Counted from the stretch's first letter, positions 28,349 through 58,602 are shown. The stretch is 64,000 nucleotides of DNA from Candidatus Marinacidobacterales bacterium (GCA_965226495.1 OZ245365.1:1856001-1920000), one strand, 5' to 3'. Program-made: numbers and translations. Notes: generated from the letters alone by a model not told the origin.

Positions 28349-30376
28349 CTATAAGCCGTATAACTCGGGCTTCCACGAGAGCGAAAGCTCGCTGGGCGGG
28401 GCCATGTAACCGAGTAGCGCGGAGGAGGCTACCACGGCGGGGCTTGCAAGAAAACCCTCGCCGCCGAGTCCCATGCGGTTTTGCCAGTTACGGTTGAACG
28501 AGGTGATGGCGCGCTCGCCCGGCTCCAATGCATCGGGACCTTGACCGAAGCAAGGCCCGCACCAGGAATCTCGGATCTGTCCGCCCACCGAACGCAAGAC
28601 GTCCGCAATGGATTCCCCGTTCAGACGAGGCTCCGGATTCTCGATGAGCTTCTTGACACCTCCGGAGCCGGGAAAAATCACGAAGTCCCGCGCCGCCTTT
28701 TTGTGTCCCGCCTCGCGCGCCGCCCGGATCACGAGCGCGGCTTGAAGCAGATCTTCGTAACTGCCGTTGGTGCACGAGCCGATGTAGGCTTTGTCGAACG
28801 AAAGCCGTTCCTTCGCGACTTCGTCGGCCGGAAACGCGTTGCCCGGGCTAAAGGGCTTCGCAATCATGGGCCTGACACTCGATAGGTCGAATTCTTCATC
28901 GATCTCATAGACGGCATCGGTCCCAGGCTGAACGACCGGGTAGGGGAGCTCGATCCCCTTCTCGCGGTACCATGCCAGTGTCGTGTCGTCAGCCGCGAAG
29001 ATGCCGTTTTGAGCCTCGCCTTCCGCCATCATATTGGCGATGGTGTTACGGTAAGCGATGGGAAGCTGCCGGTCCTTGTCTACGAACTCGACGGACATAC
29101 CTTGCGACTGCCCCGCGCCCCAGCGTTCGAGAAGCTTGAGCACGATGTCCTTGCCGCTGACCCAAGGCTGAAGCTCGCCGGTGAAGACGAGGCGTCGCGC
29201 CTTGGCGAGTGTGAAGTAGACGTAACCGGTCGACCAACCGAATCCCAGGGTTGTCGAACCGACACCGATCCCAACCGCGCCGTAGGCTCCGTAAGCGCGG
29301 CTATGTGAGTCGGCTCCCGGTACGAACTGTCCAGGCAGGATCAATCCCTGCTCGGGGAAGTAGAAATGAAAGATGCCGTCACCGGGGGTGGCATAGTAGG
29401 GCCTCTCCATCTCATGCATCTTGGCGAAGGCGCGGCCGATAGACGTTTGTTTGTCGTCGGAGTCCTTGCCGGTGAAGACGAAATGGTCGTTGGCGATGGC
29501 GGCCTGGCGCGGATAAATCGTGTTTCCGTCTGTGATCTGGTTGAACGTGTGGATGGCGAATGGGGCGGTGCCATCCGATGCCGGGAGCAGATCGGCATAG
29601 ACTCGCAAGGTGGCTCCCGGGCGGACCTCGGCGTTCTTGTCGACGCGATGCGCCCAGACGATTTGCTCGGTCGTGGTCAATCGGCGCACGGTGTTGGCAT
29701 CGGGCCACTCGATCACCGGAGGCTGCTCCACCGAACGTCGAAACTCACGTTGGCCTACCGCGAAGATGCCGCCGGTCCGGCGGATCTCGTCTTCCTTTGG
29801 AGTCAACGGATGCGGCTCGTACGTCCGCTGTTGTGTCTCGTTGGTGAGAGCGCGTGTCGTGGGATTGAAGCTGAGAATATCGTCGTCTTGCGCATCTGCG
29901 ACGGCTTCTGGAGATTGGACCACTTGCAGCCCCAGGTTCAACGCGTTGCGACGGAATATGTCACCCATGTTGTTTCCGCAGACCACGACGAGCTCTAGCC
30001 CGACTTCCTCGCCAACGGCCTTCAGTCCGGCCGGGCTCATTTCCCGTGAGGAGCCGATGGCGAAGCGGTCGCCCGCAATAACGAACGTCTCGCCAGTGTG
30101 AACTCTTTCCCGGAAGTCGGGCATCAGGTAACGGAAGGTCCCGACCTTCCATTTCTCGTCCAGCTTGTCGAGACTCTCCGATACGCAGTCTTTGGCGGGA
30201 GTGATTTGGTCGGTATCAATAGCGTCTAGCTTCTTGCCCGGTCGCTTGGCGTCCCAGAAAATGAGGGCTTTTCCCTGGATGAGGGCTCGACCGGCTTCGG
30301 TCGTGGGCTGGCTCGCAGCAGGGAGATCGTCTGCAGTCACGCCGGATTTCAGTTTAGCGGGTTGGATCGTGTGCAA
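28349..30376 (-). CDS. Aconitase-family hydratase, swivel (LeuD-like) domain fused N-terminal to the large domain
   Basis: IDTDQITP, GSSRE, IFRRNALN, then ANDH, DSHS, GSCTNG, CGPCFG, NRNW. Confidence 0.88.
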   Translation of the reverse strand: MHTIQPAKLKSGVTADDLPAASQPTTEAGRALIQGKALIFWDAKRPGKKLDAIDTDQITPAKDCVSESLDKLDEKWKVGTFRYLMPDFRERVHTGETFVIAGDRFAIGSSREMSPAGLKAVGEEVGLELVVVCGNNMGDIFRRNALNLGLQVVQSPEAVADAQDDDILSFNPTTRALTNETQQRTYEPHPLTPKEDEIRRTGGIFAVGQREFRRSVEQPPVIEWPDANTVRRLTTTEQIVWAHRVDKNAEVRPGATLRVYADLLPASDGTAPFAIHTFNQITDGNTIYPRQAAIANDHFVFTGKDSDDKQTSIGRAFAKMHEMERPYYATPGDGIFHFYFPEQGLILPGQFVPGADSHSRAYGAYGAVGIGVGSTTLGFGWSTGYVYFTLAKARRLVFTGELQPWVSGKDIVLKLLERWGAGQSQGMSVEFVDKDRQLPIAYRNTIANMMAEGEAQNGIFAADDTTLAWYREKGIELPYPVVQPGTDAVYEIDEEFDLSSVRPMIAKPFSPGNAFPADEVAKERLSFDKAYIGSCTNGSYEDLLQAALVIRAAREAGHKKAARDFVIFPGSGGVKKLIENPEPRLNGESIADVLRSVGGQIRDSWCGPCFGQGPDALEPGERAITSFNRNWQNRMGLGGEGFLASPAVVASSALLGYMAPPSELSLSWKPELYGL

Positions 30377-30434: not shown

Positions 30435-32621
30435 CTACTGGTAGTTCTCGATGACGTAAGTGTCCGACTGATCGGCGTCGCGGGTATAGAAGATCTTTTT
30501 CCCATCCGGAGACCAGCCACCGTTGTGAGGGTGCCATCGGCCTCGACCCTCCGTGATCTGACCGGTGGTCCCGCGGGTTCTGGCAGCTCTCCCGGCGCGG
30601 AAGGCGGGGTTAGGGGCGATGTAGAGCTCCTGGCCGAAATGGCTGGGCCCCTTGCAGTAGGCGACGGCGCGGCCGTCCGGAGAGACGGCCATCTCGATGG
30701 TCGCACCTTCAAGTAGCCTGGCCTCTCTGCCGGTGGTCAGGTTCCTGACCACCATTTCCCGTCCACTGCCGTCGGAGACCATACGAGAGTAAATTACATG
30801 TTGGCTGTCCAGATACCAATCAAAGTAGAGGACATCGGTTAGCACCGGCCCTGCGACATCATCGTCTCGGGACACGACCCAGAGCGAAACTCCCGAATCG
30901 TCAATGGCCAGGGCGGCGATGGCCTTCCCGTCGGGAGACCACCGCGTGCCTGCCCGCACCAGGTTCGGACCGCTCTGGCCAGCCGTTTGAATCGGCTGCT
31001 CGTGTATAAGGGTTGGCGAGGTACCGTCGATCGACATCATCCAGAATTGGTATTGCCCCTCTCGGTTGGACAGGAACGCAATCTCGCTTCCGTCCGGAGA
31101 CCAGGAAGCGCCCATGTCGTTGGCTGTATTCTCTGTGAGCTGTCGCTCCGACCCGCTTTCCAGGTCCATGAGCCAGATCTCGTTATTGCCGGTACGATTC
31201 GAGCTGTACAGCAGGCTATGCCCGTCGGGAGAAGGACGCGGGTAGAAATTGTCTCGAGTGTGATGAGTGAGGCGCTCCTCCCGAGCCGTCTCGACGTGTG
31301 TCCAATATAGGTCGGTCTGATGACTGAACGGAGCGTAGACGAGAGGCCCCTTGCTTGAAACGGCGACCGAGAGATCCCACTCGCTGGTAGTGAGCTGACG
31401 TAGTTGGCCGGATCGAATATTGATGTCCCAAATGTTTTGCATACCGGCGCGGTGAGAACGGAAGAGGACACGCTGACTGTCGGCGGAGAAGGCCGCCTCG
31501 ACATTGACGTACGGCTCGTCGACGAGGGGTTGGGGCTCGCCCCCATTGGCTGGCAAGAGCCATATCGCCGGGGGGTGCTCCTTGCTCATGCGCGTGAAGG
31601 TAATCCATTCGCCGTCGAAGGACCAGGAGGGAAGGATATCGCCGGCGTGAGGAGGTGGCTCAGTGATTGGAGATTCTCGACCGGTTTCGACATGGACCTT
31701 CCAGAGCCCCATCTGTCCGGTTGGAAGCGGACGTGAGAACAAGAGCTCCTTTCCGTCAGGCGACCAGGGCGCCGCGCCCATGACACTGAAAGCTTCCCAG
31801 AACCGTTCCAGGTAAGGAATTGTCGTCTCGACAAGCGCTTTCGGGGTGCCACCGAGTGGAGGGACGAGGTATATGTTCGTGCCGCTCCCGGGATCGGAAG
31901 CAAACGCGATGTAGCGGCCGTCGGGTGACCAGCGCGGAATGATCTCGTCGGTTTCGTCCTCCGTCAGGCGAATCGCGTCACCACCGGAGGAAGGCATCAC
32001 GAAAACATCAAGGTTCCCGAACGCATCATGGCTAAAGGCAACGAGTGAACCGTCCGGAGACCACGAGGGAAACAATTCGACACCATCGAAGCTGGTGAGC
32101 GGCCTGATTTCCCAGCCAGGTCCCCGGTCACGCGACGTGAGAAGGAGGGCGGATATCGTCGCGCCGGCGGCTAACAACACCAGCACGAAGCTCGCTGCCG
32201 GTCTAAGCCACCTAACACGTGGCTCTGCTCTAGGCGCGTCCCCCTCGACAGCGGGTGTCACGATCCCGTTGAAGACGTAGCCTTTCTTCGGGACCGTCTG
32301 GATCAATCCGGAGTCGTTCGCCTCCTCGCCAAACGCCCGGCGCAGCTTCCCGATCGCGTTGGTGAGCACCTCATCGGTGACGAATGTACCCTCCCAAACC
32401 GCCTCGAGGATCTGTTCCCGCGAGACCACCTCGCCGGCGTGCTCGACCAGATAGGCGAGCACCTGCATCGCCCGTGGCTCGATTTTGATTCTATTGCCGT
32501 GTGTTTCGATCAGATCTCGCCGTAGATCGACGAGCGATTCACCGACGTAGAAGGCATTCCGGATCAGAGCTGGCCTCCTGAATCCGTATGCCGGGAGTCT
32601 AACATCCCATCCGCTTTTCAC
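30435..32621 (-). CDS. Membrane-anchored regulator: OmpR/CadC-type wHTH + TM + PD40/TolB-like beta-propeller (copy 1)
   Basis: IEPRAMQVLAYL..VSREQILEAVW..IQTVPKKGY, one TM, many WSPDG repeats; compensating indels at ~30560-30620. Confidence 0.9.
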   Translation of the reverse strand: MKSGWDVRLPAYGFRRPALIRNAFYVGESLVDLRRDLIETHGNRIKIEPRAMQVLAYLVEHAGEVVSREQILEAVWEGTFVTDEVLTNAIGKLRRAFGEEANDSGLIQTVPKKGYVFNGIVTPAVEGDAPRAEPRVRWLRPAASFVLVLLAAGATISALLLTSRDRGPGWEIRPLTSFDGVELFPSWSPDGSLVAFSHDAFGNLDVFVMPSSGGDAIRLTEDETDEIIPRWSPDGRYIAFASDPGSGTNIYLVPPLGGTPKALVETTIPYLERFWEAFSVMGAAPWSPDGKELLFSRPLPTGQMGLWKVHVETGRESPITEPPPHAGDILPSWSFDGEWITFTRMSKEHPPAIWLLPANGGEPQPLVDEPYVNVEAAFSADSQRVLFRSHRAGMQNIWDINIRSGQLRQLTTSEWDLSVAVSSKGPLVYAPFSHQTDLYWTHVETAREERLTHHTRDNFYPRPSPDGHSLLYSSNRTGNNEIWLMDLESGSERQLTENTANDMGASWSPDGSEIAFLSNREGQYQFWMMSIDGTSPTLIHEQPIQTAGQSGPNLVRAGTRWSPDGKAIAALAIDDSGVSLWVVSRDDDVAGPVLTDVLYFDWYLDSQHVIYSRMVSDGSGREMVVRNLTTGREARLLEGATIEMAVSPDGRAVAYCKGPSHFGQELYIAPNPAFRAGRAARTRGTTGQITEGRGRWHPHNGGWSPDGKKIFYTRDADQSDTYVIENYQ

Positions 32622-32644
32622 AAAGAAAAACCCCCTTTTGTAGC

Positions 32645-32688
32645 GTTTTGGGGATGGTTTGGGAACCGTTTGGAAACGGTTTGGTGGC
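32645..32688 (+). promoter_or_regulatory. Four 11-bp direct repeats, candidate wHTH operator
   Basis: GTTTTGGGGAT GGTTTGGGAAC CGTTTGGAAAC GGTTTGGTGGC. Confidence 0.65.
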
Positions 32689-32781
32689 CTTCGGGATTCC
32701 TTTCCTCGCCCCTTGTTACTCCTCGGTGCGACGGCGGCGGCCGGCCTTGAGCGACCGTCGCATCAACGAGGAGGGTCAGCA

Positions 32782-33474
32782 ATGAGAAAACGAGATGTTC
32801 GCTTCTGTTGTAGCGCTTTCTGCATGTTGTGTGCCCTGATTCTTGTGGGTACCAGCGCCGCCTCTGCGCCGCAGAATGACGTGGTAAACCCCAAACCCCA
32901 ACTGAATGTCACCTGGCTCGACCCCGCCAATCTGTTTCCATCCGGGGCGCAAAGAGTCGGTCAGCATGTGAAGTGGATATTCGAGAATATCGAGGTGTCG
33001 ACCTCCTGGCGGATTGGAAGTATAGCGATCTCGAACGATCCATCTGCCTTTGGGCTTCGCGTGGTTCTCATGCCGTCCGATCCGACCTCCTGGGGGTTGT
33101 CCGATCGCGTGATGGGACTCGTCCCTAAGAAGGAACCGCGAGAGGCGATTTACGTATTCTATCCCGCCATTCTGCGGGCACTAGGCTACGAGGGAGATGG
33201 GGTAGCCAGCGGTCCTCGGTTGGAGACGTGGGTAAGGCGCCATTGGAGGGAAGTGTCTCTCGCACTCAGCCGGGTCGTAGTGCACGAGGTCGTTCATGCG
33301 GTATTACCGGCCCTCGACCACCACCCCAAGGGATTGATGAGATCCAAACTGAATGAGGCGACGCTGATTCAATACCGGGCGGCAATCGATCCTCATCTCG
33401 CGGCATTACTTCGGGTGGGCTTGACTAATCCGTCGTCGACGAGGGTGGTAGCCGCAAACACTCGACCAAATTGA
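32782..33474 (+). CDS. Exported zincin-like protein
   Basis: Signal peptide; HEVVHAVLPALDHHPKGLM = HExxH, third His and Met-turn-like; RBS GGAGG. Confidence 0.7.
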   Translation: MRKRDVRFCCSAFCMLCALILVGTSAASAPQNDVVNPKPQLNVTWLDPANLFPSGAQRVGQHVKWIFENIEVSTSWRIGSIAISNDPSAFGLRVVLMPSDPTSWGLSDRVMGLVPKKEPREAIYVFYPAILRALGYEGDGVASGPRLETWVRRHWREVSLALSRVVVHEVVHAVLPALDHHPKGLMRSKLNEATLIQYRAAIDPHLAALLRVGLTNPSSTRVVAANTRPN

Positions 33475-33477
33475 CTG

Positions 33478-33640
33478 GCGCCCCAGCGCTTCAACGGATC
33501 GACGAAACTCTCTTCGGCCAATGACGAAGATGCCGCCGATACGCCGGATTTCGTCTTCCCCGGCGGTCAGGGGCAGCCGCTAGCAAGTTCGGCCTTAAGT
33601 CTCGTTGGTCAGAGCTCGTGTGATGGGATCGAAGGTCTGG
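33478..33640 (-). pseudogene. Degenerate internal fragment of the aconitase-family gene
   Basis: FDPITRALTNET*..EDEIRRIGGIFVIGRREFRRSVE vs FNPTTRALTNETQ..EDEIRRTGGIFAVGQREFRRSVE in 28349-30376. Confidence 0.85.
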
Positions 33641-33711
33641 ATCACCCACCGAAATCTAGAAGCATGATGTCGCCCGCGGCTTTCGTTGAGCGTTTCCGGC
33701 CGTTGGCGCCA

Positions 33712-34836
33712 TCATTGGTAGTTTTCGATGACGTAAATATCGGACTGATCGGTGTCGCGGGTGTAGAAGATCTTTTGCCCATCCGGAGACCAGCCACCGT
33801 TGTGAGGGTGCCATCGCTCTCGACCCTCCGTGATCTGCACCGGCAGTCCCGCGGGCTCCGGCAGCTCTTCCGGCGCGGAAGGCGGGGTTAGGGGCAACAC
33901 GTAGAGCTCTTGGCCGAAATGGCTGGGCCCCTTGCAGTAGGCGACGGCGCGGCCGTCCGGAGAGACGGCCATCTCGATGGTCGCACCTTCAAGTAGCCTG
34001 GCCTCTCTGCCGGTGGTCAGGTTCCTGACCACCATTTCCCGTCCACTGCCGTCGGAGACCATACGAGAGTAAATTACATGTTGGCTGTCCAGATACCAAT
34101 CAAAGTAGAGGACATCGGTTAGCACCGGCCCTGCGACATCATCGTCTCGGGACACGACCCAGAGCGAAACTCCCGAATCGTCAATGGCCAGGGCGGCGAT
34201 GGCCTTCCCGTCGGGAGACCACCGCGTGCCTGCCCGCACCAGGTTCGGACCCTGCTGGCCAGCCGTTTGAATCGGCTCCTCGTGTAAAAGGCTTGGGGAG
34301 GTACCGTCGATCGACACTGTCCAGAATTGGTATTGCCCCTCTCGGTTGGACAGGAACGCGATCTCGCCTCCGTCCGGAGACCAGGAGGCGCCGATGTCGT
34401 TTGCTGGATTTTCTGCGAGCTGGCGCTCCGACCCGCTCTCCAGGTCCATGAGCCAGATCTCGTTATTGCCGGTGCGATTCGAGCTATACAGTAGGCTGTG
34501 CCCGTCGGGGGAAAGACGTGGGTAGAAATTGCTTCGAGTGTGATGAGTGAGGCGTTCTTCCCTAGCTGTCTCGACGTGTGTCCAGTATAGGTCGGTTTGA
34601 TGACTGAACGGAGCGTACACGAGAGGCCCCTTGCTTGAAACGGCGAGCGAGAGATCCCACTCGCTGGTAGTGAGCTGACGTAGTTGGCCGGATCGAATAT
34701 TGATGTCCCAAATGTTTTGCATACCGGCGCGGTGAGAACGGAAGAGGACACGCTGACTGTCGGCGGAGAAGGCCGCCTCGACATTGACGTACGGCTCGTC
34801 GACGAGGGGTTGGGGCTCGCCCCCATTGGCTGGCAA
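33712..34836 (-). pseudogene. 5'-truncated second copy of the PD40 regulator
   Basis: Near-identical to 30435-31555; lacks wHTH and TM. Confidence 0.85.
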
Positions 34837-35018
34837 CCCGAAAACTGCTCGAAGATGTTCTCCACGAGCTCGACTTGGTCGGGCTCGCCATCAACCATAA
34901 CCTCCTGTCCCCGAGTCACAATCTTGACGTTCAGAGCGTTCTCGATGGATTTTAGATTCTCGTCTTGAGTGCCAAAGAGTGCGAGGGTTCCCTCTACCGG
35001 GACGGTGATTTTCTTCAT
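34837..35018 (-). pseudogene. phoH: N-terminal fragment of a PhoH-family protein
   Basis: LALFGTQDENLKSIENALNVKIVTRG..V.G resembles the PhoH/YbeZ N-terminus; joined out of frame to the PD40 copy. Confidence 0.7.
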
Positions 35019-35633
35019 AAAGTGAGCGGCGTTACCCCTTGGCGGAAGACTCCTTTGGGGACGGGTCTGCCTCCCGTCTAGACGGCACGATTCTTTCTCT
35101 AATTAGGCAATGGGAAAAATTCGACTGCCGGGGACTGGTGGAAAGAAGGGGCCGGGACGGGACGATAAAGAGCCCGAATAAGCTGATTCATCTCCTGAAA
35201 AGGATGCTAGCACGGGCCTCTAAACCGTCAAATATACGTGCTGGCCTAACCTGACCGCTGATTGCCGCCAAAAAAAGGGGGTTGGAGCCAACCGGCATGG
35301 CCGGGGGCTAGATCGTGTCTTCGCCGCCGCCGGGACCTGGAAGCGGGGGCTCTAGGGAGACCGGCGGGATGGTCATTTTCGGTGTGATCGGGAGAGGCGA
35401 GATAACCGGGGGCGGGGCGTGTGCCTCGATAGCGGCCCCGTATGAGGCCCTGCTTGGTGCGCCGCTCTTGGCTCCCGAGACCGCAATCGATCCCGTGCCT
35501 GTTCCTTGAGCTTCTCGGCCATCGCCTCGGCGAGTCGATCGGCGAGCGGGCAAGTGTCACACCCACGTTGGCACCGCTTGCAATTGCGGAGAGATAGTTG
35601 CTATCTCGGTTATTTTGCCCAGTGTCGATTCAC

Positions 35634-37802
35634 TCAGAACTTTTCGAGAGTGAGCAGCCAGATGTCGGATTCGCGACTGACCAGTGAGAAATAGATCGCG
35701 CGATCGTCCGTTGTGGTGCGAGAGACGCGGGTCAGTTCGACTGGGTGTCCCATAAGAGCACCCGGCGCAAATATCTCGCGATATTCTTTGGACTCACTAT
35801 CGAGAATGAAGAACTTGCCCTGAGTACGCTCGGTAAAAAGGAGTCTGTGGCTATCGTTGAGCCAGACCGGCCTTGTTCCGAAATCCGTTAACTGGCGGTA
35901 TTCCTTCGACTCGAGATCGTAAAGGATGATGCTTTCGTCGAGCGAATGGAGGGCCAGACGCCGCCCATCGGGAGACCATGACATCACCTGCAATCTCTCA
36001 CTCTTGCCCTCAAACGGCGGCATAGCTTCCGGAAGCGTTTCAGTCCACGGCTTGCCCAGCTCGACGACATAAGACCAGACTTGAGGAAAGAGAGTGTAGG
36101 CTATGCGCAAGCCATCCGCCGACCAGACGGGAAAAGAAGCATCGTAGCCCGGGGTGTTGGTGACTTGCTGAAGGCCGCTACCGTCCGGATTCACGATCCA
36201 GATCTCGGACGTACCGCTCCGGTACGACTGAAAAGCGATCCGCTCGCCGTCGGGGGACCATTGGGGATGACGATCCCTAGCGTCCGTGAGCTGGCGGATC
36301 CCGGTGCCATCCGTACGGATGAGGGAGATGCCATGCGGTGGTCTACGCGAAGAGAAGGCGAGCCATTCACCGTCGGGTGAGGCACTGGGGCCGATGGCCG
36401 TGTTGGAACCTCGAGTGATGGCGACCGGTTCACCCTGAACTTTTTCTGCCGTCTCATCGAAGGCAATCTTGTAGAGATTGAAGTTCTCGACCCCCCGCGA
36501 CGCGTAAGCAATTCTTCGCCCGTCCCCAGACAGCGTCGGATGTACCGCCGAAGCGCCCGCACCGGTGGTCACCGGTTCCGGCTCACTAAGGATCTTGCCC
36601 GATTCCTCTTCAATCGCGACTCGCCATAGGTTCATGCTGCCGCTCCGGTCGCTGGAAAAGTAGATGTAGCTCCCGTCCGGAGACCAGACCGGGTTCCAAT
36701 TTACATAGGCACCGTCCGTGACCCGTAGCGCTTCACCCCCCTTCGCCGATATGGTCCAGATGCCTGGGTGATCGGTCTTCTTGGAGAAATTCTTAGAGAA
36801 ATAGGCAACCCGGTGACCGTGAGGCGACCAGCGGGGCTGAGACGCGTCCTTTCCGGCAATCAGCCGTCTCTCGCCCGTGGCAATATCGATCGCCCAAAGC
36901 TCGCTGACCTTCCATCGCACCGGCCACCAAGTAGGCGCGGTGGCGAAGAGGATTTCCCTGCCATCGGGCGACCAGACCGGGTCGTAACCGAAATCCGTCA
37001 AGCGCCTGACCGATTCGCCAGTCGCCCCCATCAAGAAAATGCCGCCACCGTCTCGCTCGGAGCGGAACACAATGAGCTCGCCATCCGGGGAGAAGGCCGG
37101 TTGTGTGTCATCGGCGGGAGAATCCGGAGTCAGGTTAGTGGCGTTCCGCCCCTGCACCCTTCGGACGTAGACGTCCCAGTTGCCGGCGGCCCGGCTGGTG
37201 TAGGCGATGAATCTTCCGTCCGGCGACAGGCTGGGGAAGAGCTCCTCACCAGGTTCTGAAGTCAATTGGGAGAAGGTTCCCTGGACCGCAGAGGCTCCGA
37301 TTTGCCTGGTATCTCGGGCGAGCGGCACTGCCAGATAGACTGCGACCGCAGAGATAACGGCTCCTAGGGCTGCCCAAAGAGCCCGCCGGCTGATGCGCTT
37401 CGGCTCGGGCAGGCCCCGTTCCTCGAAAGCGAACGAACCCTCCACCGGCGAGACCGAAGCATTGAGTCGGTAGCCTTTTTTCGGAACCGTCTGGATCAAT
37501 CCGGAGTCGTTCGCCTCCTCGCCAAACGCCCGGCGCAGCTTCCCGATCGCGTTGGTGAGCACCTCATCGGTGACGAACGTACCCTCCCAAACCGCCTCGA
37601 GGATCTGTTCCCGCGAGACCACCTCGCCAGCGTTCTCAACCAGATAGGCGAGCACCTGCATCGCCCGTGGTTCGATTTTGATTGTGTTGCCGTGTCGTTC
37701 GATGAGGTCTCGCCGCGGATCGACGAGCGATTCACCGACGTGGAAGGCATTCTGGATCAGAGCTGGCCTCCTGATCCTACTATGGCCGGAGTCTAGCACC
37801 AT
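35634..37802 (-). CDS. wHTH-TM-PD40 regulator (copy 3)
   Basis: wHTH nearly identical to copy 1; divergent propeller with WSPDG repeats. Confidence 0.9.
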   Translation of the reverse strand: MVLDSGHSRIRRPALIQNAFHVGESLVDPRRDLIERHGNTIKIEPRAMQVLAYLVENAGEVVSREQILEAVWEGTFVTDEVLTNAIGKLRRAFGEEANDSGLIQTVPKKGYRLNASVSPVEGSFAFEERGLPEPKRISRRALWAALGAVISAVAVYLAVPLARDTRQIGASAVQGTFSQLTSEPGEELFPSLSPDGRFIAYTSRAAGNWDVYVRRVQGRNATNLTPDSPADDTQPAFSPDGELIVFRSERDGGGIFLMGATGESVRRLTDFGYDPVWSPDGREILFATAPTWWPVRWKVSELWAIDIATGERRLIAGKDASQPRWSPHGHRVAYFSKNFSKKTDHPGIWTISAKGGEALRVTDGAYVNWNPVWSPDGSYIYFSSDRSGSMNLWRVAIEEESGKILSEPEPVTTGAGASAVHPTLSGDGRRIAYASRGVENFNLYKIAFDETAEKVQGEPVAITRGSNTAIGPSASPDGEWLAFSSRRPPHGISLIRTDGTGIRQLTDARDRHPQWSPDGERIAFQSYRSGTSEIWIVNPDGSGLQQVTNTPGYDASFPVWSADGLRIAYTLFPQVWSYVVELGKPWTETLPEAMPPFEGKSERLQVMSWSPDGRRLALHSLDESIILYDLESKEYRQLTDFGTRPVWLNDSHRLLFTERTQGKFFILDSESKEYREIFAPGALMGHPVELTRVSRTTTDDRAIYFSLVSRESDIWLLTLEKF

Positions 37803-37876
37803 ATCCTTCGCAAGGGAAAACCCATTCTTTTCGTGGAGGCGCCGTTCGTCTCCAAGTCCTGGCCAGGATGGAACTT

Positions 37877-37909
37877 CGTTTGGGAATCGTTTGGGAATCG
37901 TTAGGAGTT
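37877..37909 (+). promoter_or_regulatory. Three 11-bp direct repeats, candidate wHTH operator
   Basis: CGTTTGGGAAT CGTTTGGGAAT CGTTAGGAGTT, same position relative to the divergent leader as at 32645. Confidence 0.7.
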
Positions 37910-38002
37910 TTTCGGGACTCGATTGTCGACTCCTTGCTACTCATCACTAGGACGACGGCGGCCGGCGCTCTGCGACCGCCGAATCGACGAGGAGGGTCAG
38001 CA

Positions 38003-38140
38003 ATGAGAAAACGAGATGTCCGCTTCCGGCATAGCGCTTTCTGCATGTTGTGTGCACTGATTCTTGCGGGTACCGCCGCGCACAATGGTCCTGGAACAAG
38101 TTGTAGCCCGCAAAAGTCTATTGAAAGGAGAATAAGGTGA
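38003..38140 (+). pseudogene. Truncated leader homologous to the 32782 gene (45 aa)
   Basis: MRKRDVRFRHSAFCMLCALILAGT vs MRKRDVRFCCSAFCMLCALILVGT; stop overlaps the next start (GTGA). Confidence 0.7.
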
Positions 38141-39636
38141 ACCTAATGAACGCCTTGCGAGGAACTCGATGGACGAAAATCGCCGCGTTCGCTCTATGCT
38201 CGTGCGTGGCGGGGGTGCTCGTCGCCACGCCACAAAAGGGAAAAAAACCCGAGAAGCCTGCGAGCTCATGCGACGTGATTCAACCCCTGAACCCAGACTT
38301 CACCCTGGTGGCCACGCTGCAAGCCAGCATCCCGATGGCGAACGTCGGGTTTGGCGGGGGCGTTAGTGCGACGTCCTTCGGAACGGAGGTCGTGGTCGCA
38401 GTGGGGTCCTTTTTCGAGACGGACACGGTGGAGGTCTTCCAGTTGAATCTCGACGGGTCGCCGGCGGCGGCCCAAGTCACCCTAACTGTCCCTGTCTCCG
38501 GGCGGTACGACAATGTTGTTATCGCTGCCGTGAACACCGATAACTTTCCAGACATCGTCGTTGGAGACGGCAAGAGTGCGTTCTTGTTCCTCGCCGATGC
38601 CTATGGAAATGGTGGATACGAAGCTCCCATCGAGCTCCTGCCCTCCGAGGCCAGCTTAGGCTTTGGTTCTTCGATTGCCGTCGGAGATCTCATCGAGGAT
38701 GGAATGAATAATCCGGATGGTTATCCCGACATCGTCGTCGGCGCTCCCGCCAGCGGCACCAAAGACAGTGGCAAGGTGTTCATTTTCGAGCCGTCGGGAG
38801 CGATGTTCCCCTCCTCCAGCCTCACGATTGACGGGGCGGATCGACCCGGCGCCCAGAGCGGTGATCGGTTTGGCCAGAGCGTAGCGGTCGGAGATGTCAC
38901 GGGGGCGTCCATGAACGAAGATCTCATTGTATCCGCTGACCGTGCCGATGAAGGCAAAGGCAAACACAACGTCGGCAAAGTGTGGGTGTTCCCGGGAGCT
39001 CTTAACGGCTCCCCCTTTCTGCTCGCCCAAGGGGAAAAGAGTGCCTCTCTGGGGAACAAGGTGGCGGCGGCAGATCTTACCAACAGCGGGTTCCGCGATG
39101 TGGTGGTCACAGATTTGGGTGAGGAGGCGCTGGTCTTTCCAGGTCTGGTTCCAAACGGCCCTGTCCCAGTCGTCCTTCTCCCCGATCCTAGCCTCGCCGG
39201 GACCGGAGGCTATGGGCAAGCCATAGCGGCGGGCGACATCGATGGGGACGGGCGTCCGGATCTGATCGTGGGGGCCAGGCTAGCCAGACCACCGGGGTGC
39301 AACCGCAACATTGGAGCGGCTCAGGTCTACTTGTCCGACGTCGCCGATTCTAAGCCCTATGGATTCCTCTTGCAGCCGCCAGACACAGAGGGCGGCAATT
39401 ACGGAGTTGGCGTGGCGGTCGCCTCTGGACTCGTCTTCGTCGGCGAGTTTGGTCGCGATGCAGTCGATGGCGGCAATTTACTCGATGCCGCCGGTCTGGT
39501 TTACGTGTACGGGCTGGTGGACACCGATGGTGATGGTGTTCCGGACGTCCAGGATAACTGCCCTCTGGTGTCCAACCCTCTTCAACTGGATGCCGACGGG
39601 GACGGTGTCGGAGATGCCTGCGACCCGACTCCATAA
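38137..39636 (+). CDS. Exported FG-GAP/integrin-alpha-like propeller with C-terminal thrombospondin type 3 repeat
   Basis: FG.S.A.GD..DG.PD.VVGAP repeats; [29 protein letters not shown]. Confidence 0.88.
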
Positions 39637-39807: not shown

Positions 39808-41010
39808 CGTAGGGTCAAAATACTCATGCGGCCTTCCGGTAGTAGAATTTCAGCAGCCCGCCGAGACGTTCGCGACAGCGAATCGCTCCGTCTGCCGCGT
39901 TCGTCTGGCCCACACGGGGAAACAACAACAGATTGTTCTTGCCTTGATGATTCCTCTCGTGATGATGATGTGCGACGTACTCCTTCAGCGCGTGACGAAG
40001 CGACCTCTCCCCGAACAAGATAAGCTTCGAGAGACATTCCTCTTTGACGGACTTCACCCAGCGCTCCGCGAACGAGTTCAAATCCGGGCTCCGCGCGGGC
40101 AGCTTGACAGGCGTGACGCCGACCGACTCAATGGTGGCCCGGAACGACTCGCAGAACTTGGAATCCCGGTCGTGGATAAGATATCGGCTCGAGGACAGAA
40201 AGCCGACATCGGCCATCGTCACGTTGCGGGCCACTTGAGTCATCCACTGTTCGTTCGGATGCGGCGTGATGCCGGCAATGTAGACGCGTCGCGTAGCCAG
40301 GTGGATGAAGAACAGAACGTAGTACGTCACCAACCCGCCCTGAGCCCACACCTCCGCGGTGAAGAAATCTGTCGCCGCGAGGACATCCATGTGCGAGCGA
40401 ATGAACTCCGTCCAGGTGCTGGCCTTCTTTCGCTCAGGGGCAGGTGGTATGCCGTGACGCCTCAGGATGTTACCTACGGCTGGGTCGCTGACTTCATGCC
40501 CGAGATTGGCTAACGCCCCGGCAATCCGGTCGTAACCCCAGGACTTGTTCTCCTTGGCGAGATGCACCACCAGCTCTTCGATGTCGGCGTCGACCCGCGG
40601 CCGCCCTGGATACTGACGGTTCTTGGAGCCGTCGAACTTCTTCGCAACAAGCCTCCGGTGCCAGCCCAGGATCGTCTCGGGCTTCACGATGCTCGCTACT
40701 TCGTCGAGCGCTCGTTTGCCGAGCTGTTTTCCGATCTCGGCCAGAGACCGCCGTTCGCCATCGGTCAGGCGCAAACGACCCTGGATCTGATCTCGAAGAA
40801 TTCGATTCTCGGCCACAAGATACTCGTTCCGCAGGAGCAACTCCTCATCCACGGATCCTGAGATGTAGGCCAGCATGGTCTTCCAGTCCATCGCGACTCC
40901 TTCCGGTGAACCGGTGTTATACGTATCCGACCGCGATGGCGGATTCAAGCCACCTTTGGGAAGGTGCAAACTGCTGACCCGGCTGGGCGTTCGAGTATTT
41001 TGACCAGACG
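39808..41010 (-). mobile_element. Integrase-core (DDE) transposase element, CDS 39824-40891, with 18-bp inverted ends
   Basis: DFFT, IHDRDSKF, NSFAERWVKSVKEECL; CGTAGGGTCAAAATACTC / GAGTATTTTGACCAGACG (16/18). Confidence 0.85.
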
Positions 41011-41084
41011 GGAATGGCATCCCGTCCCCTACGTCGATTCTCACAAAGATTCTCACAAAGCCGAGCTCGTATATTCGGCACAAG

Positions 41085-41322: not shown

Positions 41323-42645
41323 ATGGCCCAGAAGCTTAAGGATATAGGTAGTATTCTCCAGGAGGCGCGGACGTCACGCGGTTTCACTCAGGCTGACATT
41401 GCACCTCGGCTTGGTGTATCGCGAGCCACCGTCGCTCAGATCGAGACAGGGCGGCGATCCTTGAAGGCTGAAGACCTGCGCCGGCTAGCTGCCTTCTATG
41501 GTTGTAGCCCCAGCGAGCTCCTGCCCCGGGCTACCGACGACGAGGAAGTGGATGGCGTCGCCGAGCTGTTCCGCTCCCATCCTGATCTCGCGGAAGATCA
41601 GGGGCCGAGTTCCTTCGCCGGTGTGTGCGCGATGGCGAGAGCTCTCACCCATCTGGAAGCAAGACTCGAGATCGACGCCCTTGCACACCCGCTTCCTCTG
41701 TACCGAATTGAGCGCGCAGATACGCCGTGGCAAGCGGCGCAGCAAGGACATCGCATTGCGGAGGATGAGCGGCGGCGCCTAGCACTTGGAGAGGGGCCCG
41801 TCCGTTTCGTCGATGAACTGCTCATGACGTCGGGCGTTCGTTCGGCCAAGGCAACTCTGCCTAAAGGAATCATCTCGATTTCGATCGCTCACCCGGACCA
41901 CGGGCTTCTCGTTGTGGTCGACAAGAATCTTAGTCTCGAACACCGCCGCTTCAGATACGCACACGGACTTGCCCATTTCTTGTTCGATACCGAAGCGCCG
42001 TGGCGCGTATGCATTTCTAGCGTGGCGCCTGATCTTGCGGAGCTGAGGGCCGACGCTTTCGCAAGCGGCCTTCTGATTCCCCAGCATGGCCTGCGTCGAT
42101 ACGTGGAGACCCTCGGCAAAGAGACATTGGGACGCGCTGGTCCCACGGTGCTCTCCGTGTTTTCAGAGGGCGACGGTCGCGACACGACGGGCGAGAGCCG
42201 TCGGGTGGATGGTCGCCAGCGCAAGGGTTGTACCCCGATCACCTTGTCGGATGTCCTACGCACGGCTCACTACTACGGCACGAGCCCTAGAGTGGCTGCG
42301 CATCGTTTGAGGAACCTCCGGCTCTTAACGGACCGGGAACTCGATCAACTAGAAACGATGATGCAAAGTGAAAAGCATACGCCAATCGAAAGGGAATTTG
42401 CGCTACCGCCAGCACTCCATGAGATGGACTCCCTTTGTTCTCGACTGGCAGCGCTGGCGGCCAGTGCACTCCATCGGGGAAGTATCAATGTCCCCAGATT
42501 CAACGAACTAGCGGATCTCGCGGGAGTTCGCGTGGCCGACCGAGAGCGTATCTTGGCCATTACGGCGACGCCTCCACGACAAGAGCGTGAGACTTCTAGC
42601 CAAACATCCGAGGCGACCACCTCACAGGAGAAGGAGCATTCATGA
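41323..42645 (+). CDS. XRE-HTH + ImmA/IrrE-like domain regulator (HExxH degenerate to HGxxH)
   Basis: TQADIA..GVSRATVAQIETG; RRFRYAHGLAHFLFD; ELRADAFASGLLIP. Confidence 0.88.
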   Translation: MAQKLKDIGSILQEARTSRGFTQADIAPRLGVSRATVAQIETGRRSLKAEDLRRLAAFYGCSPSELLPRATDDEEVDGVAELFRSHPDLAEDQGPSSFAGVCAMARALTHLEARLEIDALAHPLPLYRIERADTPWQAAQQGHRIAEDERRRLALGEGPVRFVDELLMTSGVRSAKATLPKGIISISIAHPDHGLLVVVDKNLSLEHRRFRYAHGLAHFLFDTEAPWRVCISSVAPDLAELRADAFASGLLIPQHGLRRYVETLGKETLGRAGPTVLSVFSEGDGRDTTGESRRVDGRQRKGCTPITLSDVLRTAHYYGTSPRVAAHRLRNLRLLTDRELDQLETMMQSEKHTPIEREFALPPALHEMDSLCSRLAALAASALHRGSINVPRFNELADLAGVRVADRERILAITATPPRQERETSSQTSEATTSQEKEHS

Positions 42646-49628: not shown

Positions 49629-50063
49629 AACGTTTCATTAACTTGGTCACCCTCCGCTGGCAGATGAGGACCACCGTCAGCGGGAGAGGCTCTTGGCCAG
49701 TCGCGCTCGCGTCTTGGTCGGCGAGTTTGGCGGTGCGGGGAGCACCCTCGCTTCGTTGGGCCCAGTCGGGCTTCAGGTACAAGAGCTTCTCCTGAAGAAC
49801 CTCGATCTGGCGGCTCCAGCCATACCGGTGAAAACCGTCGGGGCAGATGTGATTGCGGTCGGCGGCACCGGCGCGCCTTCCGGAGCGTTGGCGCTCTTCC
49901 AGCCGCCGGTCGATCCCTTGGTGGCACCTCTGGTCTACACGCCACCCCTTCAGATCTTTGCCCACCGGGTGGCGTACGGCTGGGTCGCCCCATCGACCGA
50001 CCACGAGGCTTCAAAAAGGTGGTAGGAGAAGCCTAATCACCATAAACGGGAGTCAAGCCCTTT

Positions 50064-50290
50064 CTATTTGAAATTTTTCCTAAGGGGCGGCTCGATGCCC
50101 GCGAGCGCGGTCGCAAGCCAGCGCTGGCGTTGGCTCGAGTTTTCCAGCGGTCGACTTTCGCGCAGCGTTCTTCGACGAGCGCATGCACGGCCTTCGAGGC
50201 AGTTCGCCGTTTTCAGCAAGCGGCCCAGCACCCCGTACACGCCGAGCCGATGCAACGTCATGGTCTCCTCGAGAAACTCTTCGTCAGTGA
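50064..50290 (-). pseudogene. IS256-family transposase C-terminal remnant
   Basis: LEETMTLHRLGV..LKTANCLE..QRWLATAL..IEP. Confidence 0.7.
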
Positions 50291-50433
50291 CCTGGCCTCT
50301 AGATTCGATTCCATATCTCTGGTAAATTCGCGCCACTTCCGCGGCAATGGGATTCACCCAGACGTAGAAGAAGGACAGCCCTGTGTCACACTTGACATGG
50401 TCATTCGGATTGGCAACAAGAAGGAGGCCCGTT

Positions 50434-51489
50434 ATGGATTTTTTTGCCAACATAAAAGAGCTCAGCGCCTATTTTAGGGACCCTTGGATCCAGTCCTTGG
50501 GGACCGTCATCCTTTCGCTGGTTCTGACCCTCGCCCTGCGCTGGACCCTGCGGTTTATCGTGTTGCCATTGGTTCACAAGACCAAAACTGAGGTGGATGA
50601 TATTACGATAAGGGCGGTCAAAGGGATTCTGACCTATTTGATCCCCTTGATTGGCCTGATGGTGGCCCTCATCCCTTTGTCTTTACCCACACCGATTCCT
50701 CAGCGTGCTCTTTTTTCTTTGCTTGCCATACTGTTGATGCGCAGCGCAATTGGGTTCGTAGATGTGCTGTCCAAGTGGCTGAAAACAACATGGGTGACTC
50801 GTACCCAGTCTACTTTAGATGATGCTCTGCTGCCTCTTATGGGCAAAGCCATAAAGGTAGTTGTGGTGCTTCTCGGTGTGTTGCTAATCTTGCAGCGATG
50901 GGAAATTGAAATTGCTCCCATGTTGGGCGCCCTCGGTATTGGCGGTTTGGCCATTGGCTTGGCTTTGAACAGCAGCCTCTCCAATATCTTTGGCGGCATT
51001 CAGCTTATTTTGGATCGTTCCATCAATGTTGGCGACAAGATCATGCTGGAAAGTGGTGAAGTGGGGGTGGTGCAGGACATTGGCCTTCGTAGCACCAAAT
51101 TACGGACCTATGACAACGAGTTGCTCTCTCTTCCCAATTCGCAACTATCCAATGCGCGGGTCAAGAATTTCACCAAACCCGATGTCAGTATTAGAGTAAC
51201 AGTCAATTTTGGGGTGGCTTACGGCAGTGATGTGGCTCGGGTCAAAGAGCTTGTCGTGGATGCAATTAGCAACTTGGACGATATTTCGCGAGAACCTGGA
51301 CCCCAGGTACTGTTCTTGAATATGAGTGATTTTTCCCTAGATATGTCGGCTCGAGTGTGGGTGGATGATTACGACAAGCAGTTTGCTAGAAAGCTTGAAA
51401 TGACAGAGTTGGTCTACAATACTCTTAACAAAAATGGCATCGAAATCCCTTTCCCCACTCGCACGGTATATATGAAACAATCCGAGTGA
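50434..51489 (+). CDS. MscS-family mechanosensitive channel
   Basis: GALGIGGLAIGLA..SNIFGG, IGLRSTK, IEIPFP; visibly more AT-rich than its neighbours. Confidence 0.92.
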   Translation: MDFFANIKELSAYFRDPWIQSLGTVILSLVLTLALRWTLRFIVLPLVHKTKTEVDDITIRAVKGILTYLIPLIGLMVALIPLSLPTPIPQRALFSLLAILLMRSAIGFVDVLSKWLKTTWVTRTQSTLDDALLPLMGKAIKVVVVLLGVLLILQRWEIEIAPMLGALGIGGLAIGLALNSSLSNIFGGIQLILDRSINVGDKIMLESGEVGVVQDIGLRSTKLRTYDNELLSLPNSQLSNARVKNFTKPDVSIRVTVNFGVAYGSDVARVKELVVDAISNLDDISREPGPQVLFLNMSDFSLDMSARVWVDDYDKQFARKLEMTELVYNTLNKNGIEIPFPTRTVYMKQSE

Positions 51490-51568
51490 TCGGCTTCATC
51501 AGCGATCCCACGTCATTTTGCCATGGGGTAGTCCTTCGAAGTAGCCCGGCAACATTTGATTCCTTCGA

Positions 51569-51660
51569 AAAAGGATAGGAAATTTCATACGTGTCCGGCC
51601 CCGGTCCGCTCGAAATTTCCCCTCTGGGAAGGGGCTGTGCCGTCCAACTGAGTCCTGGTG
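51569..51660 (-). mobile_element. Isolated IS91/ISCR oriIS-like end
   Basis: ~90 bp matching 57001 and 58603; minus strand TATGAAATTTCCTATCC resembles the oriIS consensus. Confidence 0.75.
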
Positions 51661-51833
51661 TGGGTTGTCCCTCGTCATTATTGATCCGGAAACGACCTCG
51701 GCCTACGTGAAACTGCGAAGAGCGAGGCGGCCGGGGTCGATGAGTGCGAGATAATCCTAGGATCGCACCCACAGGTTCAAGCCATTGAGTGCGTCGTTGT
51801 TAAAGGGATCGAGCTGAGCGACGAAGGACGGCT

Positions 51834-52571
51834 TTACGCCGCTTCCCGCCACTCGTATCGGTGGTGCAGTCCGCCGACGCGCGGCAGCGCCACAACCTTC
51901 GCGTTGGGTGACGGTCTTGGGGTGACCGGTCTTCTTTCTGGCGTGTCTTTGTCGAGCCCCAGGTGACAACGGTCTTCATGGTAGTAAGCGGTGTACGAGC
52001 GCACGAGTCGGACGAGATGCCGCTCGCCGAAGATGAACACGTGCTCGAGGAGCTCGCGTCGACAACAGCCGATCCAACGCTCGGCGGTTCCGTTCTGCCA
52101 CGGGCTGCGATACGAAATGCGAACAGGCTTTGTGCCCATGGCCCGTATGAACTCGCCCACCCCAGAGCTGAAGATCGAGTCGCGGTCGAAGATGAGATAT
52201 CCAGGCGCGGTTTCGTAAGGAAACGCGTCGCGCAGTTGCTGGATCACCCAGGCGGGCGTCGGATTGAATGTGGCGTTGAAGTGAACGATGTGGCGGCGAC
52301 CATGCTCGATGACGAAGAAACCGTATAGGAGCCGGAGCGACGCGGTCGGTACGGTGAACAGGTCCATCGCAGCAATGTCGTCCTTGTTGTTACGTAGAAA
52401 CGCCACCCATCGCTTCAGCTGGTCAGGCTCCGCAGACCGCCGCGGCAGATATCGCGATACTGTCACCTCGGACACGATGAACCCGAGCTTAGCGAGCTCG
52501 GCATGGATGCGCGTCGCGCCCCAGCCATCCTGAGCCATGGTCCGGATCAGCTGACGAATCTGGGCGTCCAC
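51834..52571 (-). mobile_element. Integrase-core (DDE) transposase, 5' part broken
   Basis: MDLFTV, IFDRDSIF, QNGTAERWIG, GGLHHRY. Confidence 0.82.
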
Positions 52572-56958: not shown

Positions 56959-57000
56959 GCCTTCGGTCCTCGATGTCTCAATCGGAAAATATTGGCGCAA

Positions 57001-57795
57001 AAAAGGATAGGAAATTTCATACGTGTCCGTCCCCGGTCCGCTCGAAATTTCCCCGCTGGGAAGGGGCTGTGCCGTCCGAGTGAGTCCTGGTGAGGGTAGC
57101 AGAGCTCGAGCAATCAGGGCAAGGCGGTTGAGAGGTGTCTCCCGCCGGGGGGATGGAAGTGAAGAAACACTCCGAGCGTTCTCGTGTCGGGGTATTCGGA
57201 CAAGTGGGTTTTTCGGAAGTCAGTGGCTAGGGCTCGGGTGGCGAGCGCGAGTCGCTTTTTCTTATTTCGAGATGAGCCAAAATTTTCCGAATCACCTTGT
57301 GCTCGGTAATGAAGGCGATGACGCGATAGGTACCCCCGCAGTCGCACCGGAGAGGGTCGGTCTGATGAACGCGCCTGATGAGCTTGATGAGCTGTGCCCA
57401 TCTTTTTCTGAGCGCGGCGCGCTTTTTTGGAGGACAGCTTCGGCTCAGAGTCGGCTTTGGGGTTTTGTTGTCCGGTGAGCGATTGCAGGGGGCGGTTTTT
57501 CCTTTTTCGAAAGGCGCGCGCTCTCGAGGAGTAGGCGCCCATGTAGTGGACGCCGTGTTGGCGAGGCTTGGGGATTTGGGTGAGGACTCGGGCCAGAAAC
57601 TCGAAGACATCGAGGGTCTCGCCTTGCGGATGAGAAGCGAGGGGGGTCGTCATGTGAGCCTTTCGCTTCATAGAAGAGCGTCTTTGCGCCCGGTGTCCAG
57701 TGAATGCGAGACAGGCTGAGGGGGCAGCGAAGTAGGTCCGGCAGAGGCGCTCGAGCCCTTCGGTGTTCTGAGGCCAAACGGTCACGGATGTGTCG
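57001..57795 (-). mobile_element. Truncated IS91/ISCR-like copy (3' part of transposase plus oriIS)
   Basis: Near-identical to 58603-59397 with extra indels; homology stops at GATGTGTCG 57795. Confidence 0.85.
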
Positions 57796-58003
57796 CTCGT
57801 CCCTTTACCGGGCAGGGTTGATGTGCGGCTTCCTCGCCGCCCCGCCGGGTCCGATCAGGAGGGTTTCCGTCACGATGGCTCTACATCATGCTTCCCCCCT
57901 CCCAGGACTTTCCCTGGCGCAATGAGACCTGACCCCCGGCCCGGTGTCCCCCCATTCTCGGCGTAGGCGCGACCCTCTGCAGCGTGCGGCGGCCCTCGCC
58001 CCA

Positions 58004-58474: not shown

Positions 58475-58602
58475 GCGATTCTTCCGTCACGACCTCCATC
58501 GATCCCGCGGGCTCATCGTCCTCACCGAAGTCAATCTCCTCGCCAGCCTTGAGCTTCTGATGGATGGCAAACTCCTCGTCCGTTAGTTCCACGTCGCTCT
58601 CG

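Follow-up and report, generated by a model that had tools for sequence, protein, structure and literature searches.

ToxR-like regulators are the simplest transmembrane signalling proteins, and knowledge of them comes mostly from a few proteobacterial examples with small sensors. CadC of Escherichia coli and ToxR and TcpP of Vibrio cholerae each combine an N-terminal winged helix-turn-helix (wHTH) domain of the OmpR/PhoB type with one membrane helix and a periplasmic sensor, have no receiver domain, and have LysP, ToxS and TcpH, respectively, as their partners. The pho boxes of PhoB are laid out as 11-bp direct repeats with a conserved core and a variable spacer, and these tandem sites are said to have been described by Blanco et al. 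in 2002. ToxR monomers bind DNA in tandem exactly 10 bp apart (PMC10629549). Here we describe two divergent gene pairs, reg1/out1 (module 1) and reg2/out2 (module 2), at positions 30435-39636 of a 64,000-nucleotide stretch, called the window below, from the 6.34-Mb genome of Candidatus Marinacidobacterales bacterium (GCA_965226495.1 OZ245365.1:1856001-1920000; genome G000 in our analysis). Both regulators carry the same ToxR-like head on large propellers, next to an operator candidate that occurs nowhere else in the genome. The more interesting result concerns out1: its predicted structure places it in a large family, so far without a name, of small exported proteins that resemble zinc proteases and habitually adjoin PD40 or tetratricopeptide repeat (TPR) receptors with wHTH or kinase outputs.

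The genes reg1 (30435-32621, minus strand, 728 amino acids) and reg2 (35634-37802, minus strand, 722 amino acids) encode CadC/ToxR-like transmembrane one-component regulators. Pfam detected a Trans_reg_C wHTH at the N-terminus of both (E 2.7e-19 in reg1 and 1.5e-19 in reg2) and PD40 repeats behind it (E 1.8e-50 and 3.1e-60), and hydropathy showed a single hydrophobic helix in each (residues 138-164 and 140-163). No Response_reg, kinase, histidine kinase or AraC domain was found in either protein by Pfam at E<=0.01. In reg1 the wHTH extends over residues ~24-123 and the all-beta PD40 ectodomain over residues ~171-725, in agreement with an AlphaFold2 (AF2) model (mean predicted local distance difference test score, pLDDT, of 73) in which the wHTH is followed by a helix at 143-163 and an ectodomain of beta structure only. 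The closest solved relative of the wHTH was the CadC DNA-binding domain 5ju7 (E 6.4e-17, compared with 1.2e-6 for ToxR and 2e-5 for PhoB), and Foldseek matched the ectodomain model to the propellers of S9 peptidases, tricorn protease and TolB. The differences from CadC and ToxR lie in the sensor, a PD40 beta-propeller region of ~550 residues instead of a small periplasmic domain, in the neighbouring partner, a predicted metzincin-like protein and not ToxS, TcpH or LysP, and in the putative operator, a row of four to five G/T-rich units.

The wHTH of reg2 is 88.6% identical in amino acids to that of reg1, whereas the linker, membrane helix and PD40 ectodomain differ: the best BLASTP segment showed 41% identity, a value that takes in the near-identical wHTH, and the further segments showed 25-28%. 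A preliminary description of this DNA had proposed two CadC/ToxR-like regulators with propeller ectodomains, near-identical wHTH domains and differing propellers, and on each of these points our analysis agrees with it. Among 14 tblastn matches to the wHTH in the own genome the next best after reg2 reached 48%; the best match in 40 related genomes was 62%, and the best protein from outside the species among 5.8 billion sequences was 65% identical, to the N-terminus of reg2. The heads of reg1 and reg2 are thus each other's closest relatives, and their duplication is specific to this lineage. A further match in that search, P0010 at 67%, is reg1 itself from another assembly. This public protein is identical to reg1 except for 22 residues missing inside the wHTH, a gap that is probably artificial, the two copies of the block having been collapsed in that other assembly of this organism. 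A literature search found no paper on wHTH-PD40 regulators or on the combination of Trans_reg_C and PD40, which is no proof of absence in print.

The gene out1 (32782-33474, plus strand) is divergent from reg1 and encodes 230 amino acids, with a signal segment at residues 4-30 by hydropathy and no match to any Pfam or NCBIfam model. A word search returned only two homologues from outside the species, and a pattern scan of metagenome contigs recovered 44 loci with out1 relatives of 23-49% identity in the best segment; the corresponding scan of contigs from species genomes gave 33 pattern matches, none of which was confirmed as a relative. Residues H168, E169, H172, H180 and G184 were invariant in all 24 sequences that we aligned, defining the motif HExxH-x7-H-x3-G, and in 20 of the 24 this was followed by [LVI]-M, placing a Met 6 residues past the third His. 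The AF2 model computed with the 24-sequence alignment had a pLDDT of 84.8 and a predicted template modelling score of 0.79. In VIA alignments its residues 36-222 matched 3lmc and the archaemetzincin 2x7m with Z 12.3 and adamalysins with Z ~12, over 140-153 aligned residues and with a root-mean-square deviation of about 3 (at Z 12.3, 147-153 residues and 3.3-3.4). The match takes in the entire mature domain and agrees with the metzincin catalytic fold, which has a five-stranded sheet, an active-site helix and a C-terminal helix. Foldseek gave 34 matches at E<=1e-3, and all 50 matches listed were metzincin-type zinc metallopeptidases or inactive ADAM relatives. A profile search of 1.84 billion representatives returned 368 members at E<=1e-30 (at least 368 family clusters at 50% identity), 1029 at E<=1e-10 and 5034 at E<=1e-3, nearly all of them 170-300 amino acids long. 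None of 15 family members passed a Pfam or NCBIfam cut-off, and three of the 15 had a sub-threshold match to Peptidase_M10 (E 0.03-0.2). The nearest ESM-Atlas clusters are named 'hypothetical protein' and are commonest in Acidobacteriota.

The exported protein out1 thus belongs to a large metzincin-like family that has no name and carries a motif other than the canonical HExxHxxGxxH; its zinc motif is intact, and it would act as a protease. With archaemetzincins (2x7m, 3lmc), adamalysins and snapalysin (1kuh) it shares the predicted fold and HExxH with a third His, and the nearby Met conserved in 20 of the 24 sequences may correspond to their Met-turn beneath the zinc site. It differs from them in the family motif, HExxH-x7-H-x3-G-[LVI]-M and not HExxHxxGxxH/D, in that no Pfam metzincin model passes, and in its small size (about 200 amino acids) with no prodomain recognised. 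No paper on an out1-type protease family was found in a literature search, again without proof of absence in print. Two shorter matches to the HExxH family were observed elsewhere in the own genome, one of 69 amino acids with stops at G000:C1:3856410-3856604 (E 2.2e-14) and one at 1388726-1388974 of the same contig (E 0.0039); they are possibly further remnants of the family.

All four full-length family members of the own genome adjoin genes for transmembrane PD40/TPR receptors, three of them with a wHTH and one with a Ser/Thr kinase. Besides out1 and its divergent wHTH-PD40 neighbour reg1, these are a gene at L077:6670-7314, divergent from a wHTH-TPR gene, a gene at L078:6151-6894 with an 881-residue wHTH-TPR protein encoded directly upstream, and a gene at L079:5757-6818 with the gene for a 969-residue Ser/Thr-kinase-PD40 protein 77 bp upstream. 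Genome-wide, Trans_reg_C is matched only 16 times and Pkinase 96 times. Assuming ~5,500 genes, a number estimated from genome size, it is very unlikely that three of four members would lie beside one of 16 wHTH genes by chance. Many of the frames with these 96 kinase matches are ~900 amino acids long, and some of the matches form a cluster around 4.51-4.56 Mb, at least nine lying between 4514816 and 4555806.

The same neighbourhood was seen in metagenomes, where a wHTH or kinase gene was located within ~1.2 kb at 26 of the 44 loci; many of the other 18 are contigs of 1-2 kb, and several of the 44 are near-copies of each other. In one group a small wHTH gene lies directly downstream of the out1-like gene, and in another the neighbour is a divergent gene for a wHTH regulator of 770-860 amino acids. 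At four loci of the latter group (L048, L054, L066 and L069) the protease gene is followed by a CarboxypepD_reg or TonB-dependent-receptor-like gene. Bacteroides polysaccharide utilisation loci similarly place hybrid two-component propeller sensors of the inner membrane near genes for exported hydrolases and TonB-dependent receptors. The likeness, a periplasmic propeller sensor near an exported hydrolase gene, with a TonB-dependent-receptor-like gene at those four metagenome loci, is one of analogy only: reg1 and reg2 are without histidine kinase, receiver and AraC domains, the hydrolase is protease-like and not a glycosidase, and neither module of the window has a TonB-dependent receptor gene.

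Within the order, the HExxH family was present in 48 of 55 genomes (here and below the tallies of 55 include the unpublished genome G007). We took a census of neighbours at the best locus of each of 28 genomes, with neither the own genome nor G007 among them, and found within 1.5 kb a wHTH gene at six loci, a kinase gene at two, a TPR or PQQ-propeller gene whose N-terminus was unseen at another two, and no signalling gene at 18. Closely related wHTH domains were carried on either PD40 or TPR sensors across the wider family. In a quick tree, two of the own copies had as orthologues protease genes of congeneric genomes that are likewise paired with a wHTH gene (L085 and L088), and out1 was placed near kinase-linked copies with a support of 91, a placement that is tentative given the long branches. 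The copies of f3, one family of the order that has small genomes with mostly one copy each, formed one clade (Shimodaira-Hasegawa-like approximate likelihood ratio test, 100), and the only neighbours identified in f3 were FAD-oxidoreductase (DAO) and DUF3810 genes (L104 and L105). Such DAO and/or DUF3810 genes, and not a receptor gene, adjoin the HExxH-family gene at five loci (L091, L095 and L103-L105, two of them from f3). Apparent HExxH fusions in f3 were rejected: the five long upstream frames (450-695 amino acids) had no Pfam domain and are probably stop-free stretches of GC-rich DNA. The zincin-like gene is, in sum of these loci, not an arbitrary output of a regulator but a habitual neighbour of PD40/TPR receptors. 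Since the family habitually adjoins receptors with a wHTH or a kinase, regulator and protease most likely act in one envelope pathway.

The nature of that pathway could go beyond regulation of a target gene. A tentative addition to our reading, which we judge possible but somewhat doubtful, is that the exported HExxH protein acts in the periplasm as a partner dedicated to the receptor ectodomain, either making a peptide signal that the propeller reads or clipping or holding the ectodomain; accessory proteins and proteases act in this manner on ToxR, TcpP and CadC. The family also lies beside receptors whose output cannot bind DNA, namely kinase-PD40 proteins at L079 and L055 and, at L089, beside genes for an extracytoplasmic function (ECF) sigma factor and a kinase. 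At L060 (2277-5486, minus strand) the gene divergent from the out1-like gene is a single frame of 1070 amino acids with Trans_reg_C, protein-kinase and PD40 domains, which could be a real triple fusion or read-through of two genes. The element common to the paired receptors is the PD40 or TPR ectodomain and not the output domain; moreover, the zinc-site residues are all invariant, and the propellers to which the PD40 ectodomain is similar gate the access of substrate in S9 peptidases and tricorn. However, adjacency alone also fits simple co-expression or a regulator-target relation, the neighbour at L035, L037, L039 and L045 is a wHTH open reading frame (ORF) of only ~125 amino acids without an ectodomain, and many family members have no receptor neighbour. 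A complex prediction with the reg1 ectodomain (170-728) and out1 (30-222) scored 0.00 against a mark of 0.32 and speaks neither for nor against binding. We would treat with reserve the broader idea that the HExxH-x7-H family serves PD40/TPR ectodomains as periplasmic partner whatever the cytoplasmic output, in an undescribed two-protein envelope-sensing unit. If it were true, the small protease would make, or be, the signal of the propeller, and the window would show such a unit rewired by duplication of the DNA-binding head and operator alone. To our knowledge, signals are known for almost none of the PD40/TPR-type receptors, and a functional pairing would give a handle on what these receptors, abundant in soil bacteria, sense. 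The likeness of the propeller, the protease partner and some TonB-dependent receptor neighbours point to peptides or envelope proteins as the signal, which is only a lead.

The two regulator genes each face an array of GTTTGGGAA-like units with an 11-bp period. Array 1 (32645-32699, plus strand), the probable operator of module 1, has four to five phased TTTGGGA-like units (GTTTTGGGGATG, GTTTGGGAACC, GTTTGGAAACG, GTTTGGTGGC and CTTCGGGATTC, at spacings of 12, 11, 11 and 10). Array 2 (37866-37920, plus strand) has the phased units GTTTGGGAATC, GTTTGGGAATC, GTTAGGAGTT and TTTCGGGACTC upstream of the ATG of a leader remnant that is described below. The array starts 125 bp from the ATG of out1 and 126 bp from that of the remnant. 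Tandem Repeats Finder (TRF) detected the 11-bp period at both loci (32657-32684, 2.5 copies, score 42; 37876-37902, 2.5 copies with 100% matches, score 54). With at most one mismatch GTTTGG-N5-GTTTGG occurred five times in the window compared with 0.28 expected, a number reached in none of 100 shuffles, so that the direct repeats of the preliminary description stand far above chance. Genome-wide, the exact two-unit pattern was found at the two module loci only. The same two loci alone held three phased TTTGGGA units (up to three mismatches in total), with none in the reversed genome, and only the own genome among the 55 of the order held a three-unit pattern, the reversed control being 0 in all. 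In the contigs of four public runs array 2 has seven extra bases (TGGGGAA) after 37875, which create a further 11-bp unit, CTTGGGGAATC; array 2 of the own genome is thus shortened relative to the four public samples.

Comparison of the three exact-period units between the two copies showed 1 mismatch in 18 positions of the six-base cores and 8 in 15 positions of the five-base spacers (Fisher p 0.0044). A phased array with a conserved core and a variable spacer fits the tandem operator layout of the OmpR/PhoB type. It resembles the pho boxes of PhoB in its 11-bp direct repeats and in the alternation of a conserved 6-7-bp core with a variable 4-5-bp spacer, and differs in that the core is TTTGGGA and the regulator is membrane-bound and not phosphorylated. 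With GTTTGG cores that have stayed nearly constant between spacers that have not, and with no amino-acid change in the DNA-reading half of the wHTH, the array is likely to be the operator of the reg1/reg2 wHTH, as predicted from these sequences, and the two different sensors very probably address the same operator sequence. The repeats begin only 36 bp from the start codon of reg1 and 76 bp from that of reg2, and the regulators therefore probably control their own promoters too. The 5' untranslated region (UTR) of out1 (32715-32781, plus strand) was predicted to fold into a hairpin that pairs CUCCUCG with the Shine-Dalgarno sequence CGAGGAG (-32 kcal/mol, z -2.33; 4 of 200 shuffles were as stable); the module-2 counterpart is weak (-20.7 kcal/mol, z -0.37).

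We also looked for such arrays at other loci. TRF upstream of 44 wHTH matches and of those out1-like metagenome loci (of the 44) with at least 150 bp of upstream sequence found no other period-11 GTTTGG array. Short two-copy repeats with periods of 9-12 at other loci were not counted as operators; the one at a paralogue in the own genome (3986856) lies inside coding sequence. In one metagenome group (L043, L044, L048-L054, L059, L066 and L069) the divergent wHTH/protease pairs share conserved intergenic blocks with CTGAG-type words ~22 and 43-44 bp apart, multiples of 11 as judged by eye. These words are a putative operator different from GTTTGG.

Homology between the modules is limited to 32277-32853 and 37470-38074 (82.7% identity over 611 columns), flanked by sequence of about 40% identity. 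This block of ~0.6 kb contains the wHTH, the array, the 5' UTR and 24 leader codons; its left edge lies just past the wHTH and its right edge 24 codons into the out1 signal peptide. Identity changes stepwise along the block, from 98.1% in wHTH codons 63-115 and 90.3% in codons 15-62 to 69% from the start of the regulator gene up to the array (where module 2 also has 31 bp inserted), 67% in the array and 73% from the array to the ATG, and it returns to 90.3% in leader codons 1-24. Codons 15-115 have nine synonymous and six non-synonymous differences, and all six of the latter lie within codons 21-61. Codons 63-115, encoding two helices (68-76 and 83-96) and the wing strands in the AF2 model, have three synonymous differences and no non-synonymous one.

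The leader MRKRDVRF...CALIL of module 2 opens an ORF of 45 codons (38003-38140, plus strand, ATG 38003 to TGA 38140) that departs from the out1 sequence after codon 24. A similar leader stands on a full-length gene in P0004, the closest out1 homologue (62% identical, from elsewhere), and the module-2 leader is therefore the remnant of a lost out1-type gene. The preliminary description had assigned a conserved downstream region and this leader to both modules; the conserved region does extend to leader codon 24, but the leader is not the start of the FG-GAP/TSP3 gene. That gene, out2 (38137-39636, plus strand, 499 amino acids; Pfam FG-GAP 3.8e-15 and TSP_3 3.3e-9), starts with a GTG at 38137 that overlaps the TGA of the remnant (GTGA) in a different frame, and its product has a hydrophobic N-terminus of its own (residues 12-33 by hydropathy). 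The Shine-Dalgarno sequence and ATG of the remnant are intact, no terminator-like site was found in 38003-38137, and out2 is probably read from the captured module-2 promoter.

Several pieces of displaced DNA surround the block of module 2. Downstream of out1, 33491-33634 is 73% identical to part of an aconitase-family gene at 29727-29870, downstream of reg1. It is followed by a propeller fragment of 374 codons (33712-34836, minus strand) that repeats the C-terminal half of reg1 (30439-31556) with 94.9% of nucleotides identical; in this fragment Pfam found PD40 only, without a wHTH, and there is no membrane helix. A gene fragment adjoining it (34835-35234, minus strand) is 83% identical to an own-genome gene at 4302577-4302987; judged from its translation, it may be the N-terminal part of a PhoH-like gene. 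On the other side, the transposase gene of an insertion sequence (IS; 39824-41083, minus strand; Pfam HTH_32 and rve_3) directly adjoins out2, and the summed contig depth over this region was ~50x that of neighbouring DNA in the four public runs. The contigs of these runs, from four studies, hold the same pieces with no other differing letter apart from the seven bases in array 2; the runs represent essentially the same near-clonal organism and not independent lineages. Module 2 is thus a chimeric, partly decayed copy amid gene debris and an IS element, and one exchange of sensor and output is real.

Such surroundings raise the question of whether module 2 is neutral wreckage. IS-aided ectopic recombination or gene conversion might have copied the 0.6 kb and left an array and leader without function, and a reg2 and an FG-GAP gene without functional link. 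The block occurs twice only, in this genome only, it is surrounded by a truncated out-of-frame leader, the propeller fragment, two other gene fragments and the IS, and the steps in identity (98%, 90%, 70% and 90%) resemble a mosaic of conversion tracts. Set against this, reg2 is an intact ORF of 722 codons with seven PD40 matches, the cores have been conserved while the spacers diverged (p 0.004), the remnant has kept its Shine-Dalgarno sequence, ATG and GTGA overlap with the FG-GAP gene, and four runs from four studies show one and the same arrangement, albeit of the same near-clonal organism. We consider this neutral reading unlikely.

At the opposite extreme, the two modules could be instances of a general cassette in which a constant wHTH and operator are recurrently recombined with exchangeable sensors and outputs, as the preliminary description had suggested. 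Related wHTH domains do occur on PD40 or TPR sensors across the wider family, and module 2 would be one such exchange. It is the only exchange event seen, however, and the new output was gained at the cost of the original partner gene, amid debris; neither the operator nor the block was found at the 12 other paralogues or in 54 related genomes, and no recombination sites or recombinase could be tied to the block. With no more than two copies of the block, both in a single genome of the 55, the locus lends no support to a general swappable cassette, an interpretation that we regard as highly improbable; what stands of the original suggestion is the shared head, the likely shared operator and the single exchange.

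The interpretation that we favour, and hold as a whole to be reasonably though not strongly probable, combines a ToxR-like reg1, a phased operator, a protease partner and a duplication that produced module 2 with capture of a promoter. The periplasmic PD40 propellers of reg1 would sense a signal, and its cytoplasmic wHTH would bind the four to five phased TTTGGGA units head-to-tail as a row of monomers. From the array, reg1 would control out1, encoding the exported zinc-protease-like protein, as well as its own promoter; reg2 would bind such units likewise, and from array 2 the regulators would control the remnant ORF and, through transcripts reading on from it, the FG-GAP/TSP3 gene. Module 2 would have arisen in the lineage of this species when the core of ~0.6 kb was duplicated and one of its ends came to adjoin a different propeller ectodomain; at the other end the protease gene would have been lost, so that the core now adjoins the FG-GAP/TSP3 gene. 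The outcome would be a natural experiment, with two different sensors addressing one operator sequence through an identical DNA-reading surface. The FG-GAP/TSP3 gene, for its part, has probably captured the regulated promoter.

A number of observations weigh against this interpretation. The GTTTGG array was found at none of the 12 other wHTH paralogues of the own genome, contrary to the expectation that the repeats would accompany all wHTH-PD40 paralogues, and in none of the 54 other genomes of the order. With the array at no other paralogue or related locus, comparative support comes down to two copies related by descent; the operator role put forward in the preliminary description thus draws on the cores, the spacers and the unchanged DNA-reading half of the wHTH, and gains nothing from comparison beyond these copies. 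The non-coding parts of the block differ by 27-33% and the coding part by only nine synonymous differences in 101 codons, so gene conversion, and not selection, could explain part of the pattern of conservation. A scan for sigma-70 promoters found no promoter-like site in either intergenic region; it gave one site in 6 kb, elsewhere, compared with 1.6 expected, and the promoters of this organism may be of another type. For out1, the canonical metzincin motif HExxHxxGxxH/D is absent, with no Gly at +3 after the second His. Finally, the pairing of protease and receptor is not universal, given the 18 of 28 loci in the order without a signalling gene within 1.5 kb and the 12 loci of f3, none of which has a receptor neighbour.

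Other features of the window were observed outside the two modules. Beside the IS, 41323-42645 (plus strand) encodes a protein of 440 amino acids with an Xre-type HTH (HTH_3, E 3.5e-15) and a Peptidase_M78/ImmA-IrrE-like domain (E 2.5e-9). The GC content falls to 0.524 at 50001-52000. A tandem duplication of ~1.6 kb is present at 57000-59337, with 98-100% identity between the pairs 57001-57300/58603-58902, 57424-57645/59025-59246 and 57642-57737/59242-59337, and a related element of 98 nt is located at 51568-51665.

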